Counted from the first letter of the stretch, positions 1 through 9,061 are shown. The stretch is 14,206 bases of DNA from a virus (IMGVR_UViG_2609459844_000009:1-14206); one strand, 5' to 3'. The notes: generated by a model from the letters alone, not told the origin. A program made the numbers and translations.

Positions 1-1155
1 ATGCTCACCGTTAAGCAGATTGAAGCAGCAAAGCCGAAAGAAAAACCATACCGCCTTCTCGATGGTAATGGCCTGTACCTTTATGTTCCTGTATCCGGGA
101 AAAAGGTATGGCAGCTTCGCTACAAGATTGACGGTAAGGAGAAAATCCTGACCGTCGGAAAATATCCGCTAATGACTTTGCAGGAGGCAAGAGATAAAGC
201 ATGGACCGCGAGGAAAGACATCTCGGTTGGCATCGATCCGGTAAAAGCGAAAAAGGCTTCGTCTAACAACAATTCCTTTAGTGCGATTTACAAGGAATGG
301 TACGAGCACAAGAAGCAAGTCTGGTCAGTAGGCTATGCAAACGAACTTGCCAAAATGTTTGACGACGACATTTTACCCATCATCGGCGGCCTTGAAATTC
401 AGGATATTGAGCCGATGCAACTGCTGGAAGTAATCCGCAGATTTGAAGATCGCGGTGCAATGGAGCGAGCCAACAAAGCCCGCAGAAGATGCGGAGAGGT
501 TTTCCGTTACGCTATTGTCACCGGAAGGGCTAAATATAACCCGGCACCTGACCTTGCAGACGCCATGAAAGGATACCGCAAGAAGAACTTCCCGTTTCTT
601 CCTGCAGACCAGATCCCGGCATTCAACAAAGCACTGGCAACATTTTCAGGAAGTATCGTATCGCTTATTGCGACTAAAGTTTTACGCTACACCGCCCTAA
701 GAACGAAAGAACTTCGTTCCATGCTATGGAAGAACGTCGATTTTGAAAACAGGATTATCACCATCGACGCCAGTGTGATGAAGGGTCGCAAGATTCATGT
801 AGTACCGATGTCAGACCAGGTAGTTGAACTTCTCACTACGCTAAGCTCAATCACCAAACCAGTATCAGAGTTTGTTTTTGCCGGGCGCAACGATAAGAAG
901 AAGCCAATCTGCGAGAACGCGGTGCTACTTGTGATCAAACAAATCGGCTATGAGGGTCTGGAAAGCGGTCACGGATTCAGGCATGAATTCAGCACGATTA
1001 TGAACGAGCACGAATGGCCTGCTGATGCTATTGAAGTGCAACTGGCACATGCCAACGGCGGATCTGTGCGCGGGATTTACAACCATGCTCAGTATCTCGA
1101 TAAACGCAGAGAAATGATGCAGTGGTGGGCGGACTGGATTGATGAAAAGGCGTGA
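1..1155 (+). CDS. intS: Tyrosine recombinase, P4-family prophage integrase (IntS-like, argW-targeting)
   Basis: 384-aa ORF starting at window position 1. N-terminal arm-binding region (KQIEAAKPKEKPYRLLDGNGLYLYV) typical of P4-type integrases; C-terminal catalytic signature HGFRHEF ... LAH ... RGIYNHAQY. Recalled as near-identical to E. coli KplE1/CPS-53 IntS. A TorI-like excisionase lies at the opposite end of the element, as in KplE1. Confidence 0.9.
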   Translation: MLTVKQIEAAKPKEKPYRLLDGNGLYLYVPVSGKKVWQLRYKIDGKEKILTVGKYPLMTLQEARDKAWTARKDISVGIDPVKAKKASSNNNSFSAIYKEWYEHKKQVWSVGYANELAKMFDDDILPIIGGLEIQDIEPMQLLEVIRRFEDRGAMERANKARRRCGEVFRYAIVTGRAKYNPAPDLADAMKGYRKKNFPFLPADQIPAFNKALATFSGSIVSLIATKVLRYTALRTKELRSMLWKNVDFENRIITIDASVMKGRKIHVVPMSDQVVELLTTLSSITKPVSEFVFAGRNDKKKPICENAVLLVIKQIGYEGLESGHGFRHEFSTIMNEHEWPADAIEVQLAHANGGSVRGIYNHAQYLDKRREMMQWWADWIDEKA

Positions 1156-1244
1156 TGCTTTCCATCTTTCCATTCGGATTCCTCCTACCAGATTTACCTG
1201 GAGAGTGATATAGTTAATCTTTTAAAAAGTTACATGGGCTTTGC

Positions 1245-3080
1245 ATGTCTTCTAAATTTAGGAATGATATTAATGGGCTAAGGGCTCTAGCGGTCGCAGC
1301 TGTTATTATATATCACTTTAATAGCTCTTATATGTCAAGCGGATTTGCAGGAGTGGATGTTTTTTTTGTTATCTCTGGATACCTGATGACATCCATAATA
1401 GTTAATAAATTCAATGATGGTAATTTCAAGCTTTTTGATTTCTACCTATCCAGAGCAAAAAGAATCATACCATCATTAATAATAGTCTGCTTTGCTCTGT
1501 TGATTTTTGGTTTTTTATTAATAGAACCTGGTACTTATCAGCTAATAGGTAAGCATTCGGCAAGCTCTCTTACATTCATATCAAACTTTACCTATCTATT
1601 TGAATCTGGATATTTCGACCAATCATCCAAAGAAAAGTTTTTGCTGCACACTTGGTCACTATCTGTTGAGTGGCAGTTCTACTTGATTTATCCATTTATA
1701 ATAATATCAATTTCTAAGCTGTTTGGCATAACAAGGCTGCGAGCGGCGCTAGCGTCTCTATCGGTGATTGGATTTATAATTTCTTTAATTATATCAAAAG
1801 AAGATATATCTTTATCTTACTATATGTTTTTTAGCAGAGCATGGGAGATGATAGTAGGTGGAGTTATTTTCTTGCTTCCATCAATAATGACGCAGACAAA
1901 GAGACTGACTTTAGAAATAATAGGGTGCATTGGTATAATATTATCATTTTTTGTTTTTACTGAACAAACGTTATGGCCGGGGACTCCAACTCTAATGCCT
2001 GTAATGTTCACTGCATTGGTTATATATGCTAATAATGAAAAATCAATTCTATCTGCAAGGCCAATTCAATTAATCGGTAAGATATCATATTCTATATACT
2101 TGGTGCATTGGGTAATATTAGTATCATTAAAAAAACTGTATATAGACTTTGGGTTTGCTGCATACCTGATATCAACATTAATGCTATCTTTTGCATTATA
2201 TCACTTTGTTGAAAAAAGGCGTAGCTTTGGGAAAATATGGGTTTATTTGTATGTTTTATGTTTTCTCATTTCGCTGGCCGTCTCCTTGAATGGAGTCAGA
2301 TCGCGAACAAGTGGGTCAGATGATTACAGAATGAGCCTTCAGGAGTTCAGAGACAAGTACGAAGGAAGTGATGGAGTAAAGGATAGCCTCAAACCTATCT
2401 TCTTCAACTCTAACGAAGATGACTTTGAATATATATTAATTGGAAGTAGCCATGCAAAGCACTATTACTCATATATAAAATCAAAAGGTTTGAAAGTGGT
2501 GTCGCTTGCGCTTGATGGGTGTAACTCAACAAAAAACAGGTATACCAACTACCGTCCGGAATCATGCGCCCCTCGCTATGATCAAGTGGTAAAATTCATC
2601 AATGACCATCCTGGCAAAAAGGTAGTTTGGGCTACTTTGTGGACTTGGGTTGGGATCCCTAGAGATAGCTCCAAAAATAATAATGAGAGTACTCTAGATG
2701 TGATAAATGAAGAAGTAACTGCATTTATAGGTGACATTAATAAATCAAATAGTGACATTTATCTTATAGGTGACGTTCCGGGCACTAAGAAACTAACATT
2801 TGAATGCATGGCTAAAAATTCGCTGCCTTTGAATAGATATTTCAATTTGGGCGGATGCAGTGACAAGCAAAAGTATGAGGACGATGGTGTTGATGCAACA
2901 CTATCATCCATAGCTAGAAAATATGATAACGTTCACTTTATAGGGGCTGCAAACTCCTTGTGCTCATCAGGTGAATGCATGTTGATATCTGAAGGTAAAC
3001 CAATTTATACAGATTATGGTCACCTTTCAAAATATGGTGCAAATATAGTCGGAAAGTATATATTCAGTAAAGTTAATTAA
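1245..3080 (+). CDS. O-antigen O-acyltransferase, acyltransferase-3 (AT3) membrane domain fused to C-terminal SGNH domain (OafA/Oac-like)
   Basis: 611-aa ORF. N-terminal AT3 hallmarks (GLRALAVAAVIIYHF with conserved Arg and His; VDVFFVISGY) and many predicted TM helices; C-terminal SGNH-like motifs (ILIGSSHAKHY; DYGHLS near the end). Very AT-rich versus neighbours, no strong SD. Occupies the slot where KplE1 carries gtrABC-like genes and Sf6 carries oac. Confidence 0.85.
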   Translation: MSSKFRNDINGLRALAVAAVIIYHFNSSYMSSGFAGVDVFFVISGYLMTSIIVNKFNDGNFKLFDFYLSRAKRIIPSLIIVCFALLIFGFLLIEPGTYQLIGKHSASSLTFISNFTYLFESGYFDQSSKEKFLLHTWSLSVEWQFYLIYPFIIISISKLFGITRLRAALASLSVIGFIISLIISKEDISLSYYMFFSRAWEMIVGGVIFLLPSIMTQTKRLTLEIIGCIGIILSFFVFTEQTLWPGTPTLMPVMFTALVIYANNEKSILSARPIQLIGKISYSIYLVHWVILVSLKKLYIDFGFAAYLISTLMLSFALYHFVEKRRSFGKIWVYLYVLCFLISLAVSLNGVRSRTSGSDDYRMSLQEFRDKYEGSDGVKDSLKPIFFNSNEDDFEYILIGSSHAKHYYSYIKSKGLKVVSLALDGCNSTKNRYTNYRPESCAPRYDQVVKFINDHPGKKVVWATLWTWVGIPRDSSKNNNESTLDVINEEVTAFIGDINKSNSDIYLIGDVPGTKKLTFECMAKNSLPLNRYFNLGGCSDKQKYEDDGVDATLSSIARKYDNVHFIGAANSLCSSGECMLISEGKPIYTDYGHLSKYGANIVGKYIFSKVN

Positions 3081-3087
3081 ACCAAGA

Positions 3088-3114
3088 CCCCTCAATCCTG
3101 AGGGGCTTTTTTTT
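3088..3114. terminator. Bidirectional rho-independent terminator between convergent acyltransferase and tailspike genes
   Basis: Hairpin CCCCTCA-atcc-TGAGGGG followed by T8 on the + strand; the tailspike stop codon overlaps the T tract on the other strand. Confidence 0.8.
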
Positions 3115-5347
3115 ACGCGGTTAATATCCAGCGCTTATCATAATAATGCATTAATCCTTGTGATGTTATTTTCATATGCACGATTGCTTGAGAAAAAGCG
3201 GCGGCAGCAAAACTTACCCTAAGAAATGTTTGTGAGCCGTTATTGTATTTAGATGTGGTAATGCCGGTTAGGTTTTTACTTCCAGCAATCATATTTGACC
3301 AAACATTACTTGAAGCTAAAGTGGCTTGATCTTTTGCTGATACGCTTACCAATATAACTCCACCGGTCTCACCAGTTCCGCCCAATCCATTCTGATTAAT
3401 TGGCATAATCTTTAACTCTGCTGCGATAAAACCCCCCCCCGTATATGAAGCTTCTTCACCAATCGTTGAAATAAGAATATCAATATTTCTTCCATATGGT
3501 ACCAAAACCGTCGCATCTTCAGTTAATACCTGAGTGTATGTGGCGTTTTTAGCTTGGTGTTTAGCGGAAAGAACCACACCATCAGAACCAGTTCGAAAGC
3601 CGATTCCAGTATGTTCCCCGTAGTATTTACCGTAATAATTTATTCCTCTGACGTCAAATTCTGAAATAGCACTTCCGGTTGTGTTTTTTACGAAAATGAA
3701 CTTATCACCGAAGGTGAAACCTCGGCACTGATATTTATTCGTTGGATCGGCAATGTTTTTAAGAAAGGAAATTCCCTTATAGGCTTTAACGTACCCACTT
3801 TCGAAACGAAAGTTCACAGGACCCTTTTGTTCATTTGCTGGTAATTCAACAAAATGAGTAACCGTGGCTCCGCTAGGGTCCTGAATCCAGCAGGAAATGT
3901 TCTCAACGGTTGCAACTGATTGGCCGTCCTCTTCATTGTAATCTGCAAAATCAAGAGCGTGCGTACCATTTATCCCTTCGATACCCATACCTTTGATAGA
4001 AAGAGAGCGGAATCCATAGAACTTATGAGGTAAAGAACAACCATCTGCAGCAATATTATTTACGGCAACGTACATTAATGGCCCCGGAGCCTTTACAGGT
4101 TCATAGGTTTCTCTATCAATCACAGCCCCCCAAAGATAACCAACACCACATTGCGAAGACCAAATTGCAGAGACATCAGTACTTGTTCCCCATATTGCAA
4201 ATCCGTATGTGCAATCATACATAAAAATATTTTGTATGACGCTGACAAATGGACACGATGGGAGCGCAAATTTATAATGGTAGAAGTCTATATTAGTTAG
4301 CTTCCAGTTCTTTCCGCCACCATACGTGGTGCTAGGACCACTTAGCAAAAGTGGACACCCTGTATATTCAGAGTCAGCGTTTCTGAAACCAATATTTTCA
4401 ATATGTAAATTATGACCCCATGAGGACATGTAAAAACCGCCATTTCCTGACGTATAAATCAAACTCTGCCTCGGGTTATCACCCTTAATATTTAAGGTGA
4501 TGCCTTCCCATCTAAACTGGCTAATGTCAATTTGAGTGTTACCAATATATATAGGCTGGTCTATAAAAATAGGAAGTTTAGTTAGATAAGCTTTATTAAG
4601 TGCTAATCCATCATTTGTTACACCTGTTAAATCGACGCCACCCATGCTTGGCGCTTTTGGGTAAGGCGTTCCCTGAATAGTACTTCCATCAATATAAGGA
4701 GCATCCATCCACGCTCCAAACATACGTGGTGTTACGTACCCCTTACCTTGAAGATCACGTTTCCAGCGTTTACCACCCACAGTGACAATGACCATGCCGT
4801 TATCATCTGCAGAAGTAGAATCTGTGAAATCGGCCACAAACAGACCACCACCAGTATCGCCTGATACTGTCGGCTTCATGCCTGTGGTGTGGAAGTCGAC
4901 GAAAATCTTTTGCTGATCTCGCTCAGGCTCAATTGTCCTTAACATTGCTATATCAGGGCATGTCCCGATGTATTTAAGACCGTCTTCCCCTGATAGAGAT
5001 ACTTTAAGCTGATCAGGATCATATTTAAGAACATTCGGAAAATAGAACTGCTGTGCACCATATGCATCATAAACAGCCATAGAATGGCCTTGCACAGTTA
5101 CGAATTTAGCAATCTGCCCATTATATACCGGATATCCAGCGGCGTTAATGATGATTGGTTGCGAAACAGGAATGTGAGAGCCATCTTCGTTCTCCACATA
5201 AACCTGAATCTGGTTTTCAGGATTTACCGGGTCAGTGTCAATTTTACCGATATAAATTTTGCCATTGGCTACGGCTTTAAAAGAACGAGCCATAGTGAAG
5301 AGTTGCGATGGCATACTCACTACAACATTGGCTGTAATGTCTGTCAT
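3113..5347 (-). CDS. Tailspike protein: P22 gp9-like N-terminal head-binding domain with divergent receptor-binding/enzymatic body
   Basis: 744-aa ORF. First ~110 residues ([11 protein letters not shown] ... [33 protein letters not shown] ... [12 protein letters not shown] ... NVLKYDPDQ) closely match the recalled P22 gp9 head-binding domain; the rest is unrelated to P22 gp9 by eye and Gly/Thr/Asn-rich as expected for a beta-helix. SD GGAG ~9 nt upstream of ATG. Confidence 0.85.
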
Positions 5348-5525: not shown

Positions 5526-6428
5526 TCAGTAGTTATGTACTGAAGGAGGTAATTCTTTATTCTTAAGTCTCATCCATGCGGAAAGATTCGTTGGTCCGTC
5601 TGGCTCATTGATATCAACATCTCGTGAGTGATTGATTAAAACGTCTCTCGCTATATCGATAATACGGGAGAACTCATAACCGCAGTCATGACATCTGCCG
5701 GAATAGTTCGATTGAATTTGTTTCAGCGCCGGATACAGTTCGCGGAATAATGCCTGTGAACGGTTAGCATAATCCCATAGCCATACAAGGCTGTTTGCTT
5801 CTTTTTCAGAAAGCTCGTTGGTTTTCTTCTCTTGTTTGCCGATGAACTCGCCTTCAAGCACTACCCTGTGGATGTACTCTACGGCTTGCGGTATCTGAGA
5901 TGCATCAAGCTCTTCAATACTTTCCACATTGAAACGCTGATGAATCATTGCATAAGCTTCTGGGTACATTAGATGCTTTTTGCTGACCAGCATATTTACA
6001 GCATCACGAAGCGGAGTCCTGTCATCAACAGATGTTTTCTTACGTGCATTTTCTGCCTTTCCCTTTGTCCAGTAGTCATGCAGCACAGTAAAGCATTCTT
6101 CCTGGTACTGAATCAGTTTATCGCGGATGTCAGCACGAACTTTCTCAGGGTTGATGCTGAACAGCCATCCATTTAACTTCTTCAAAGGAAGGCAGAGTAG
6201 CTTACGAAGCTTACCATCAGCGGCAACCATATTCATATGAATACAGTTGAACTTATCTAGTTGTTTCATAAGTTTTTGTTGCTGAGTACCCCAGCTCATT
6301 CCGAGGTTTTCAACGATTGGCTTCATCGCAACATATGCAACTCCGGCAGCCATGGCGGTGATAATCTGCTGACCATTGAAAGGCACGTAAGAGGTGTTCA
6401 CTGCTTCTAAAATTGCTATACTATTCAT
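5526..6428 (-). CDS. ant: Antirepressor Ant (P22 immI-type)
   Basis: Start chosen at the internal ATG ([22 protein letters not shown]...) preceded by GGAGA; 300 aa, the length of P22 Ant. Position (arc ... ant, then tailspike, same strand) matches P22 immI. The ORF-track start at 6458 is a TTG without an SD. Confidence 0.8.
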
Positions 6429-6490
6429 GTTGGTTTTTCTCCAAGGATTTACCGACAACCGAAGCCCTGACTGTTACCGCAGTTGGGGCT

Positions 6491-6760
6491 TCAACGTTTT
6501 TCCACTTCATTTTGAATTTGCTTAAGTAGCATATTTGTCTCGTCAAGCCTCTTGTTAATACGGTCAAGGCTTTCTACTAAATCGTTATGTGCATGTGATA
6601 CTTCGTAATTTGAGACTGATTTCTTTTCCTCTATCGTCTTTGTCAATCGTTCCCCTGATTGATACATATTGATTAACGATGTAAAAATCACGAGCAAGCA
6701 AACTACAATGATTGCGCCAGACAAAAATTGTAAAGAACGATCAAGCAATGACACCTTCAT
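6491..6760 (-). CDS. Small membrane-anchored coiled-coil protein, function unknown (inserted between arc and ant)
   Basis: 89 aa with one N-terminal hydrophobic helix (LQFLSGAIIVVCLLVIFTSLI) then a charged helical region. Start ATG overlaps the arc stop (ATGA) and is preceded by GAGGGG, indicating translational coupling to arc. P22 has no gene at this position as far as I recall. Confidence 0.65.
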   Translation of the reverse strand: MKVSLLDRSLQFLSGAIIVVCLLVIFTSLINMYQSGERLTKTIEEKKSVSNYEVSHAHNDLVESLDRINKRLDETNMLLKQIQNEVEKR

Positions 6761-6909
6761 ACCGTAATCCCCTCTCTCTTCAGACTGTCCAGCAATCGCT
6801 TAATCACTTCCGAGTTAAACGACCGGCATTCTTCTTTGGCCTTTCCTGTAATCGCATCTTTTAGCGACTGAGGCATTCTCACCAAAATTCTGCTAACTTC
6901 TTTTTCCAT
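6757..6909 (-). CDS. arc: Arc-like ribbon-helix-helix repressor
   Basis: 50 aa from the internal ATG (MEKEVSRILVRMPQSLKDAITGKAKEECRSFNSEVIKRLLDSLKREGITV); aligns with recalled P22 Arc (RxPxxLxDxxxxxAxEExRSxNSE ... KxEG). Divergent from mnt. Confidence 0.8.
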   Translation of the reverse strand: MEKEVSRILVRMPQSLKDAITGKAKEECRSFNSEVIKRLLDSLKREGITV

Positions 6910-7018
6910 ATCGCCACCACGTGAGTTATTGTGAATCACAAACATATCACCGTGACTATATCAAGTCAAAATTTTTTTGAATACACTGTGATATCAATGT
7001 GATTATCACGGTGTAAGT
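6910..7018. promoter_or_regulatory. immI divergent promoter/operator region between arc and mnt
   Basis: Contains CACGTG (6917-6922), TGTGAATCACA (6930-6940), ATCACCGTGAC (6946-6956) and its inverted partner ATCACGGTGTA (7005-7015), and the perfect palindrome TGATATCA (6988-6995). The CACCGTG/CACGGTG core resembles the centre of the recalled P22 Mnt operator (CCACGGTGG). Confidence 0.6.
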
Positions 7019-7273
7019 ATGACGAAGGTTAGAGACATAGCCCCATATAGCGTAAGAATGCCAGATAGCCTCAAGCGCGACCTGACCATAAGAGCATCGA
7101 AAAACGGACGCTCATTAAATTCAGAAATAGTTATGATCTTGCAAGCTGCTATTGATGAAGAAAAATCACCAAGATCAATAGAAGGTTTTGCTCAACAAGA
7201 ATCTGAAAAATTTAGGGAGGCTCTTCTTAAGACTCTCAGCAGCATGTACGGAGAAGATAAAAAACCCACCTGA
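7019..7273 (+). CDS. mnt: Mnt-like ribbon-helix-helix repressor
   Basis: 84 aa; N-terminal RMPDSLKRDLTIRASKNGRSLNSEIV matches the recalled P22 Mnt RHH motif (RMPxxxxxxLxxRAxxNGRSxNSE). Divergent from arc. Confidence 0.8.
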   Translation: MTKVRDIAPYSVRMPDSLKRDLTIRASKNGRSLNSEIVMILQAAIDEEKSPRSIEGFAQQESEKFREALLKTLSSMYGEDKKPT

Positions 7274-7286: not shown

Positions 7287-8279
7287 TTATTCTTTATCTT
7301 TTAAGTCTATGGTTCTTTGCCCAATAACCTTTTCATCTATGTATTTCTCATACTCTTCTCGAGTATCAGAAACCATTGCAATACCAGTAACCTTACCTAT
7401 TTGGGTTCTAAGAGCCTTAACTCCAACCTCTGATAAAAACTGGTGTATTTTATCGTTTTTGCTGCCTTTCTCTTCTTTTGAAGTTTTTGCTAAATTAAAT
7501 ACCTTTCCTTCACTTCTGGCTAATGGGTAATAAATGTGATCTATCGTAAGATATTTAAACGCCCATGGTCGCCCTCTAACTGGTTTGTCTATACCATACA
7601 AACGATACCAATGCTCATAAAGTTCAGGGGTGAACTCTCTTTCATACTCACGAGCCTCTTCAGCAACATATCGCTTATATGCTTGAATTACCTCTTCTTT
7701 TGTTCTGTCATACCCTGCCAAAGCATAAACAAGCCCCTGAATGCCCGCCTTGGCTGATGCATCAATAATGATTCTGGCTTGCTTAGCAATCCCTTCCTGA
7801 CTGGAAAGCAACTTACCTTCAGCTTTAGCATTAGAGATTGCTCGACATAAATCAATTAATATTGTTACATCGTAGCCATGTATTACAGGATTAGCTGGAG
7901 TGTTCGTGCCCGCCTGTTTGTATTGAAAAATAAGAGGATTTTCAAGTTTTGCCCTTAATTCATGCCCAATATACTGAGAAATAGTTTTCCCCTGAATAAA
8001 CTTTGGCAACCTGCTGCCACCTTCGCCAAGACCAATCGCTTCTCCCATGCCTCTCTGGCTAATAACGGCAGTTTTGTTATCATCATTTAACACATAGCAC
8101 TCAACATCAATCCCGAATTCATGCTGGAACGATCCCTTATGCGTGGCAATTAATGGTTTATCCTTCCATCTTGCAGCCGCTGCTTTCTTTGCTATTTCAG
8201 AACGCTGCTCTTTAGTCAGCGACTTTGCGCGAGCGATCCCGCCCTTAGCTTTCCCTTCACTACTTTTCTTTTCTGTCAT
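7287..8279 (-). CDS. Hypothetical protein with Lys/Ala-rich basic N-terminal tail; unknown function, possible DNA-binding regulator or exclusion/defence factor
   Basis: 330-aa ORF (MTEKKSSEGKAKGGIARAKSLTKEQRSEIAKKAAAARWKDK...). AGGTG ~9 nt upstream of ATG; TTGCTT-18 bp-TATAAT sigma70-like promoter on the minus strand (+ strand 8312-8341). AT-rich relative to early genes. I could not assign a family; there is a vague resemblance to phage Bro-N/P63C-type regions that I cannot substantiate. Confidence 0.75.
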   Translation of the reverse strand: MTEKKSSEGKAKGGIARAKSLTKEQRSEIAKKAAAARWKDKPLIATHKGSFQHEFGIDVECYVLNDDNKTAVISQRGMGEAIGLGEGGSRLPKFIQGKTISQYIGHELRAKLENPLIFQYKQAGTNTPANPVIHGYDVTILIDLCRAISNAKAEGKLLSSQEGIAKQARIIIDASAKAGIQGLVYALAGYDRTKEEVIQAYKRYVAEEAREYEREFTPELYEHWYRLYGIDKPVRGRPWAFKYLTIDHIYYPLARSEGKVFNLAKTSKEEKGSKNDKIHQFLSEVGVKALRTQIGKVTGIAMVSDTREEYEKYIDEKVIGQRTIDLKDKE

Positions 8280-8434
8280 AATGCAAGCACCTTGTTGTGA
8301 TATATGCTTGCATTATATACACTGTACACACATACAAGCAAGCATAAAAACAAAACAAAATGCTTGCATTACAACCGCGCTACTCCAACTACACATTATC
8401 ATCTGGTATCCTGCACAAAACTAAGGAGGTTGGT
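8280..8434. promoter_or_regulatory. Divergent promoter region with four copies of the 10-bp palindrome ATGC(AA/TT)GCAT (putative operator array)
   Basis: Sites at 8281-8290 (ATGCAAGCAc), 8304-8313 (ATGCTTGCAT), 8336-8345 (AAGCAAGCAT) and 8360-8369 (ATGCTTGCAT); centre-to-centre spacings ~23, 32 and 24 bp. They overlap the RBS/start, -10 and -35 of the 330-aa gene's predicted promoter. Confidence 0.6.
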
Positions 8435-8764
8435 GTGCTTGAATGGTTTCTGTTGGCTGCATTAGTCGTTTCTGGTTTGGTGTATGAGTATCGAATGCAC
8501 TCTCTAACAAAAAAAATAGGAATTCTAGAAAACGAATATTGTGCTCTCAAATCCTCACTGGAACGTGAGCAAGGGGACTTAAAAATCTCTCTGTCTAGCA
8601 TTGAGCGTTCTATAGAGAGCTTAGAGGATAAGGTTGATCGTATAAAGAATGAGGATATTCATGATATTAAGGACGACATATCCTTCTTAAAATCTTGGTT
8701 GAAAAATGTTGGGAAAATTGCCACATCAACACGAGATAAGCTCAATCCATCCATGGATGACTAA
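8435..8764 (+). CDS. Small membrane-anchored coiled-coil protein, function unknown
   Basis: GTG start 5 nt after a perfect AGGAGG SD (8424-8429); ~109 aa with N-terminal hydrophobic helix (LEWFLLAALVVSGLVY) then a charged heptad-like helical region. AT-rich. The upstream ATG at 8360 lies inside operator site 4 with no SD, so I prefer the GTG. Confidence 0.55.
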   Translation: MLEWFLLAALVVSGLVYEYRMHSLTKKIGILENEYCALKSSLEREQGDLKISLSSIERSIESLEDKVDRIKNEDIHDIKDDISFLKSWLKNVGKIATSTRDKLNPSMDD

Positions 8765-9016: not shown

Positions 9017-9061
9017 TGCATCAATTGCCCCACCTGCAGCGCCAACGGGCCATACGCGCCA

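Follow-up and report, generated by a model that had tools for sequence, protein, structure and literature searches.

The window analysed here, by which we mean the whole stretch of 14,206 nucleotides, belongs to an E. coli prophage of the P22-like kind (Lederbergvirus, HK620-type). Its genes and the region under study are arranged as follows:

1-1155, plus strand: integrase
1245-3080, plus strand: AT3-SGNH acyltransferase
3113-5347, minus strand: tailspike
5526-6458, minus strand: ant
6757-6945, minus strand: arc-like gene
7019-7273, plus strand: mnt-like gene
7287-8279, minus strand: gene for a 330-aa P63C-domain protein (Pfam P63C, E = 1.2e-8), the gene under the proposed control of the array
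8280-8434: 155-bp intergenic region with the array
8435-8764, plus strand: hkcB-like gene, 109 aa, with a GTG start and an N-terminal membrane helix
8765-9016, minus strand: 3' remnant of gene 16, 83 codons

From about position 9044 to the window end, lambdoid early genes are matched. At 9043-9044, the stretch homologous to the HK620 gene 16 3' end gives way to one homologous to the exoribonuclease region of the lambdoid phages mEp235 and mEpX2; since only the 83-codon remnant of gene 16 is left, a deletion or mosaic junction is placed at this point, with the virion genes absent. At positions 1-3080, the integrase is followed 90 bp on by the acyltransferase on the same strand, with which the tailspike gene is convergent. 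The acyltransferase is probably an O-antigen-modifying conversion gene, and the contiguity of integrase and conversion genes is the order of the phage map across attP, unlike that at the end of an integrated prophage.

The P63C gene sits in the variable region adjoining the immI genes of P22-like phages, which in P22 is occupied by the superinfection-exclusion gene sieA; in the window, the arc and mnt homologues lie 1 kb from the array. HK620 carries hkcB and lacks both the P63C gene and the array. The hkcB-like gene (PHROG 5962) is 97.5% identical to the HK620 hkcB region from 8404 onwards, and the gene found beside the array varies among other E. coli prophages, so that on these comparisons we regard it as a neighbour of the array and not as a conserved partner. 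The length of 155 bp given for the intergenic region assumes that the hkcB-like gene starts at the GTG at 8435, behind AAGGAGG at 8423-8429, and the RefSeq start of its homologue in strain MS 21-1 is this same GTG. In phage vB_EcoP-611R6 (locus L001), where positions 4340-4744 correspond to 8360-8764 of the window, the deposited start is an ATG within the outermost site of the array, giving a protein of 134 aa; this is probably a start-codon misannotation.

Four sites on the P63C promoter

The four sites of the array, O1 to O4, and the predicted signals of the P63C gene are located as follows:

8360..8369, minus strand: O1, the site farthest from the gene, ATGCAAGCAT on the gene strand and ATGCTTGCAT on the plus strand, core TGCAAGCA, exact match
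8336..8345, minus strand: O2, ATGCTTGCTT on the gene strand, one mismatch, containing the predicted -35
8336..8341, minus strand: predicted -35 TTGCTT, a consensus match with an 18-nt spacer to the -10
8312..8317, minus strand: predicted -10 TATAAT, the last two bases of which are the first two of O3
8304..8313, minus strand: O3, ATGCAAGCAT on the gene strand, exact match, covering the end of the -10 and the predicted transcription start
8290..8293, minus strand: Shine-Dalgarno-like AAGG, directly 5' of O4
8281..8290, minus strand: O4, GTGCTTGCAT on the gene strand, one mismatch, between the ribosome-binding site and the ATG at 8279

Read along the gene strand, the upstream half runs from O1 (ATGCAAGCAT) through 14 AT-rich nucleotides to O2 (ATGCTTGCTT) and across the 18-nt spacer to TATAAT, and the downstream half from O3 (ATGCAAGCAT) through 13 nucleotides ending in AAGG to O4 (GTGCTTGCAT), a single T and the ATG.

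The sequence-only reading had described these sites as four near-perfect copies of a 10-bp palindrome, two of them perfect, and a motif scan for ATGCWWGCAT bears this out, with ATGCAAGCAC at 8281 and AAGCAAGCAT at 8336 carrying one mismatch each and ATGCTTGCAT at 8304 and 8360 carrying none. Only one further site with up to one mismatch, at 7679, is present in the 14.2-kb window, and the overall count (5 against 3.4 expected) is not unusual. What is unusual is the clustering: four sites within 90 bp were never reached in 3000 first-order Markov windows, 13 of which contained three, and shuffling of the 155-bp intergenic region gave four sites in 0 and three in 2 of 200,000 trials. The background in E. 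coli was low, with no exact match and five unclustered one-mismatch matches in 50 kb of chromosome, and a 41-kb P22-like prophage carrying the same allele held the array, two scattered one-mismatch sites and nothing more. Chance clustering was rejected on the basis of the shuffles and this background, in agreement with the earlier claim that the sites are too many to be accidental.

The description of the single site as a palindrome had to be given up. ATGCTTGCAT and ATGCAAGCAT are mutual reverse complements with an asymmetric central AA/TT, and the orientation of the sites alternates on the plus strand (-,+,-,+), an alternation that is near-invariant in the 53 loci described below. The unit is an asymmetric 8-bp core, TGCAAGCA, and not a true palindrome. 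Because the core is asymmetric and its orientation alternates, the sites form two inverted pairs, 8281/8304 and 8336/8360. The members of each pair (O3/O4 and O1/O2) lie 23-24 bp apart, and O2 is separated from O3 by about three helical turns. The symmetric dimer that had been envisaged for each site loses its basis in the two-fold symmetry of that site, and two inverted pairs of an asymmetric core take its place. An exact 12-mer, ATGCTTGCATTA, is repeated at 8304 and 8360, and ATAATGCAAGCA (8278-8289) and TGCTTGCATTAT (8305-8316) form a perfect 12-bp inverted repeat.

The elements listed above have the layout of a sigma-70-type promoter, with TTGnnn and TAnnnT 16-19 nt apart and a ribosome-binding site and start codon downstream; a strict promoter scan omitted this promoter because its -35 agrees with the consensus at only three of six positions. 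The overlap of the sites with the -35 (TTGCTT, 8341-8336), the -10 (TATAAT, 8317-8312) and the stretch between ribosome-binding site and start of the 330-aa gene was confirmed, and the repeated sites cover the core promoter elements of the regulated gene, as in an operator array. The claim that the array blankets a divergent promoter stood only in part: the P63C promoter is covered, but a promoter for the hkcB-like gene was undetectable in the scan of the window, and a candidate using O1 as its -35 was rejected as it finds no acceptable -10 at 16-19 nt. The array follows a terminator on the same strand in Providencia and lies between divergent genes in the IS1-family transposon described below; judged from these contexts, it is not inherently a divergent-promoter element.

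Conservation of the array and its association with the P63C gene

The P63C family is large, with 2766 homologues, 60-70% identity across Proteobacteria and 55-70% identity across phyla. We collected 80 genome loci via protein alignment and analysed 79, made up of 78 analysable loci and the window. The same four sites, in the same order, orientation and spacing, precede the P63C-family gene in 53 of the 79. Protein identity in this set is 50-68%, and the conserved sites are taken as a genuine footprint because the coding DNA is just ~65-70% identical to that of the window. The hosts belong to the Alpha-, Beta-, Gamma- and Deltaproteobacteria, Myxococcota, Acidobacteriota, Firmicutes and Abditibacteriota.

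In the 53 loci, the sites are placed at about -87 (O1), -64 (O2), -32 (O3) and -8 (O4) from the start codon, in the order AA, TT, AA, TT and at spacings of 21-25, 30-33 and 22-25 bp. This orientation pattern holds at each site in 51 to 53 loci, a central AT replacing AA or TT only twice, at one site each in L044 and L054. Core positions (TGCAAGCA or TGCTTGCA, according to orientation) carry about 2 bits each in all four sites and the flanks about 0 bits; outside the cores, conservation is limited to a TA, belonging to the -10 immediately ahead of O3, and a GG in the ribosome-binding site that precedes O4. Promoter signals are embedded in the same way throughout the set. Bases 5-10 of O2 read TTGCAT or TTGCAA in 48 loci, TAnnnT exactly abuts O3 in 38, and the O2-O3 spacing of 31-32 bp therefore sets TTGCAT and TAnnnT 17-18 nt apart; the spacer measures 17 nt in 28 loci, 18 nt in 17 and 16-19 nt in 50. 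A purine-rich ribosome-binding motif precedes the O4 homologue in 47 loci, and in 37 the start codon forms the end of this site (ATGCTTGCATG). Between -100 and +10 there are 183 copies of the core 8-mer, and the remaining 285 kb contain ten, where 8.7 were expected.

A reverse search was made with a pattern of DNA alone, TGCAAGCA-N12-18-TGCTTGCA-N18-27-TGCAAGCA. It matched 57 viral contigs, in 56 of which a P63C-type gene with the N-terminal module described in the next section adjoins the array; the 57th is cut by its contig end. Among metagenome contigs, 103 of 120 carried a P63C-type gene and tblastn added two more (at least 105 of 120), the remainder being mostly cut by contig ends or low-complexity chance matches. 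Array and gene are thus inherited together, both as islands of sites in diverged DNA and as neighbours in the two pattern searches. The proposal that the sites are selected cis-elements tied to the 330-aa gene is upheld by the comparison across phyla and by this reverse search, and we have little doubt that selection maintains the array as a cis-regulatory element of the P63C gene.

The N-terminal module and the transposon form

The 330-aa protein matches PF10546 at residues 202-289 with 35.9 bits (cut-off 26.1) and belongs to PHROG 2384, of unknown function. Strong conservation marks its body, in which many acidic residues and a histidine are invariant (D58, E208, E211, E213, H279); no defence-system assignment was obtained from PADLOC or NCBIfam. 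The remaining feature of interest is found at its N-terminus:

8166..8255, minus strand: basic two-helix module GKAKGGIARAKSLTKEQRSEIAKKAAAARW, codons 9-38, proposed as the DNA-reading head

The module, which in the window is carried by one frame only, has the 30-residue consensus GGxARAxxL[TS]xExRxxIAKKAAxARW and found no match in Pfam, NCBIfam or PDB searches. AlphaFold2 places helices at residues 10-20 and 23-38 with modest confidence (pLDDT 63 overall, 63-70 over the module).

Across loci, the P63C protein is the only constant partner of the array, and the module is the only segment of that protein conserved wherever the array occurs. Viral P63C proteins with as little as 22-33% identity in the body keep a module that is 52-72% identical (other segments 13-41%) and the same array. 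E. coli alleles that are 52-54% identical overall have 37 of 38 N-terminal residues and the array in common. Six proteins without the module are also without the array. Joint loss or transfer is partly to be expected, as the module coding sequence lies directly beside the array. The earlier suggestion that the 330-aa protein is the regulator gains from these comparisons, in which its basic N-terminal segment appears as the sole candidate that constantly travels with the array. One of the loci without module and array, L067, derives from an L040-like locus by a 351-bp deletion that removed exactly the array and the first 48 codons; its P63C gene, with neither promoter nor module, is probably a pseudogene.

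In an acidobacterial clade, the module differs at positions 10, 34 and 39 and is preceded by an N-terminal extension, position 34 being I or V in ten of ten proteins against A in 94 of 95 elsewhere, and a different inverted repeat, TATACTTGCYCGRGCA, occupies the same promoter position. The module of this single lineage is 52-66% identical, as similar overall as some array-bearing modules, and specificity would for this reason have to rest on few positions. Other inverted repeats at the same promoter position, all with a CTTGC/GCAAG kernel, were observed in diverged P63C subfamilies, L053 among them. In Acidobacteriota loci (L023, L026, L030, L031, L035, L036, L047, L049, L057 and L068), TATACTTGCYCGRGCA and its complement flank TTGAC(T/A); in L084 the repeat reads ATGCTTAGCA / ATGCTTGACA-N16-TGTCAAGCAT / TGCTAAGCAT, with a related form in L066, and L045 has TGCTTGC-N3-GCAAGCA.

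The module is also frequent outside the P63C family. A single 48-residue query returned 405 clusters at 50% identity, mostly proteins of 50-130 aa and often with tandem copies. Basic proteins of 60-180 aa with two to four tandem modules and no other domain were seen in P0124, P0126, P0127, P0135, P0147, P0204 and P0242, and a sub-threshold resemblance to the KGG / LEA_5 repeat was noted. Rather than being a sequence-specific head, the module could serve in nucleic-acid binding or protein interaction more generally. The central domain of P63C weakly resembles winged-helix folds and could be the reader of the array instead.

In many bacteria, a 2.5-2.8-kb transposon of the IS1 family, delimited by perfect terminal inverted repeats of 20-22 bp, GGTAGTGGGTCAGTTTGAA, carries the P63C gene and the array as passengers (copies at L024 1535-4061, L029 1501-4019, L058 777-3534 and L070 1171-3806); near-identical locus pairs were too few to give element boundaries. 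Of the 78 genome loci, 41, from several phyla, have an IS1-like transposase divergent to the P63C gene. The order of the element is transposase, array, P63C gene and a convergent ORF of 72-90 aa. The transposase is a DDE enzyme (Pfam DDE_Tnp_IS1), apparently leaderless and in some copies equipped with an InsA-type zinc ribbon. The small ORF, found in 71 loci immediately downstream of the P63C gene (for instance L029 3472-3720, L058 3018-3242 and L070 3493-3747, minus strand), has an N-terminal part reading MPKGPKGEKRPADVIxNAVxVMRIATGE or a variant and ends in the GGxARA...ARW module; since it carries the same module as P63C, two proteins of one element would have one putative head. In the window, the prophage copy is limited to P63C gene plus array, with small ORF and transposase both absent.

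Enrichment at the promoters of the transposase and of the small ORF was also seen for a second word, TGCTTGAGCGG, which in the latter promoter lies between the -35 and the -10. It often forms an inverted pair around the transposase start codon and has ATGCTTG in common with the main site. Measured from the P63C start, it is found at about -138 and -106 in L034 and at about +1190 to +1250 in L008, L013, L020, L024 and L025. The TGCAAGCA core was rejected as an element of the small-ORF promoter, with ten matches of up to one mismatch against 9.7 expected.

A proposed autoregulatory loop and its alternatives

We propose that the four sites are promoter-embedded operators read by the product of the P63C gene itself, in an autoregulatory loop to which we assign a probability of roughly 0.6. 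That the array is read by the gene's own product appears probable to the same degree, and there is about an even chance that it would be read through the N-terminal module. Judged from the positions of the sites, the autoregulation would probably be negative. One module head would contact each 8-bp core, and a two-fold symmetric oligomer would span each inverted pair; occupation of O2 and O3 would exclude RNA polymerase, and at the 5' untranslated region occupation of O4 would impose a further block.

The array might instead be read mainly by another protein bearing the module, namely the 72-90-aa protein of the transposon, the true regulator having been lost from the prophage or lying elsewhere in the genome. 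IS1 offers a precedent in the regulatory logic of InsA and InsAB', two proteins with one common DNA-binding head, and both the small ORF behind P63C in the 71 loci and the frequency of the module in small stand-alone proteins would fit. We nevertheless consider it unlikely, as the window and all P22-like prophage copies are without the small ORF and yet keep their sites at 0-1 mismatches, at least 20 genome loci without the transposase retain perfect arrays, and sites without a reader would be expected to decay. In the transposon form, however, the second small protein may be the main regulator. The IS1-like transposase was itself rejected as reader, being absent from at least 20 loci with intact arrays and from the window, and so was the array as transposon ends, since it is internal and the ends carry the different 20-22-bp repeat. 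It is also quite improbable that P63C acts on the sites in a DNA transaction such as recombination, nicking, iteron-type replication or partition, with only a secondary effect on transcription. The invariant acidic residues and histidine of the conserved body do hint at an enzyme, the gene is mobile between phages and transposons, and in iteron plasmids, too, Rep proteins bind to repeats that lie over the promoters of their own genes. Against this stand the fixation of the sites base for base relative to -35, -10, ribosome-binding site and ATG in all lineages, as a transcriptional operator needs, the alternating orientation in place of direct iterons, the lack of extra core copies elsewhere in the elements (10 against 8.7 expected) and the transposon's possession of its own, different terminal repeats. 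Replication iterons in particular were rejected on the alternating orientation and on the absence of rep or DnaA-box features from the neighbourhood.

A host or prophage transcription factor such as CytR, LexA or a phage immunity repressor is a very improbable reader, even though CTTGCATT within the 12-mer matches the CytR octamer, GTTGCATT, at seven of eight positions, and CTGT-N8-ACAA at 8322-8337 resembles a LexA box. Hosts from several phyla in which these factors are missing or have other specificities carry the identical array, and the phage and transposon contexts around it differ widely; a host-specific factor is made unlikely by the span of the hosts over several phyla, and CytR and other host factors were rejected on this ground. 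The LexA look-alike, CTGTACACACATACAA (8322-8337), lies in the spacer between -35 and -10 and is shared by near-identical E. coli copies. Its last base breaks CTGT-N8-ACAG, and it was rejected as probably due to chance because it is absent from Providencia, Serratia and other phyla. We give scarcely any credence to the view that the inverted repeats serve secondary structure, be it attenuator-like 1:2/3:4 versus 2:3 hairpins, a 3:4 hairpin hiding the start in read-through transcripts, or a cruciform. Pairing is open to every combination of an AA with a TT site, and Rfam gave sub-threshold matches to generic miRNA-type hairpin models over 8270-8379, the best match over the array scoring 27.5 bits against a gathering score of 140, with no family reached. 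As transcription is predicted to start at the end of O3, however, O1 to O3 are outside the gene's own mRNA. There is no covariation, base 10 of site 3 (T/C) and base 1 of site 4 (A/G) varying independently (TA 24, TG 11, CA 11, CG 5), a G-to-A change in site 4 is uncompensated in six loci, and the sequence is conserved beyond mere pairing; hairpin and attenuator were rejected on these grounds.

Autoregulation by P63C would resemble several known systems in kind. Like lambda OR/OL and the Arc/Mnt operators of P22 immI, the array sets several short sites over the -35, -10 and +1 of a putative regulator's own promoter, lies between divergent genes in the ancestral arrangement and would allow cooperative occupancy, and in the E. 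coli alleles the putative DNA-binding end and the operators are exchanged as one mosaic module, as in phage switches. It differs in sequence, TGCAAGCA having no known relation to the lambda and P22 operators, and in its protein, the P63C module being without a Pfam-recognised helix-turn-helix, Cro-type or ribbon-helix-helix domain. Each of its sites is an asymmetric core of 8 bp, and paired sites stand inverted at a distance of 23-24 bp, whereas phage switches use a 17-21-bp two-fold operator; what is regulated is a 330-aa protein of unknown function and not a small dedicated repressor; and its operator sequence is unchanged across phyla, whereas immunity operators diversify.

The occurrence of two element proteins with the same module in many IS1-family loci recalls InsA/InsAB' of IS1 and OrfA/OrfAB of IS911. 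InsA binds the terminal inverted repeats of IS1, where the promoter lies. In contrast, the present array is internal and absent from the ends (GGTAGTGGGTCAGTTTGAA), the module is neither a zinc finger nor a helix-turn-helix, and the window has no transposase. In the autorepression of plasmid Rep proteins (pSC101 repA, F repE), inverted repeats lie over the rep promoter, and here too related short repeats overlap the promoter of the gene for the putative binding protein; unlike the Rep systems, the array alternates in orientation and comes without direct-repeat iterons, origin features or a replication gene. The CytR operator, pairs of GTTGCATT in direct or inverted order at variable spacing, is approached by CTTGCATT and by the flexible spacing of the pairs. 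The array differs in being unchanged in phyla without CytR and in having TGCAAGCA as its core, not TTGCATT, with flanking T/A of little information.

Full-text searches of the literature gave nothing on the motif, on P63C function or on such a passenger of IS1. According to one paper (PMC6536676), a P63C protein connects phages of Paracoccus with gammaproteobacterial ones in a protein-sharing network. The kind of mechanism proposed, promoter-embedded autoregulatory operators, is known; new here are the uncharacterised putative head, the asymmetric 8-bp word in inverted pairs and an operator sequence kept across phyla. We tentatively extend the proposal, at somewhat less than even odds, to the module as a sequence-specific head that has escaped recognition, with TGCAAGCA as its word. 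Together with the P63C gene it would form a self-regulating cassette that spread across several phyla with its operator sequence unaltered, carried as a passenger of the three-gene IS1-family transposon and as a moron of P22-like and other phages, and together with the small protein and TGCTTGAGCGG a circuit coupling passenger expression to transposition.

Promoter-overlapping operators are in themselves ordinary. Here, one 8-bp word and one four-site geometry stand before one family from E. coli to Acidobacteriota and Firmicutes, and cis-regulatory DNA is seldom so durable. The array is a precise marker of the true P63C start codon for genome annotation, and its conservation offers a ready-made, testable protein-DNA pair. 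If the module does bind TGCAAGCA, this would annotate a large set of small basic proteins, and the control region and mobility of P63C provide an entry point to the function of the family.
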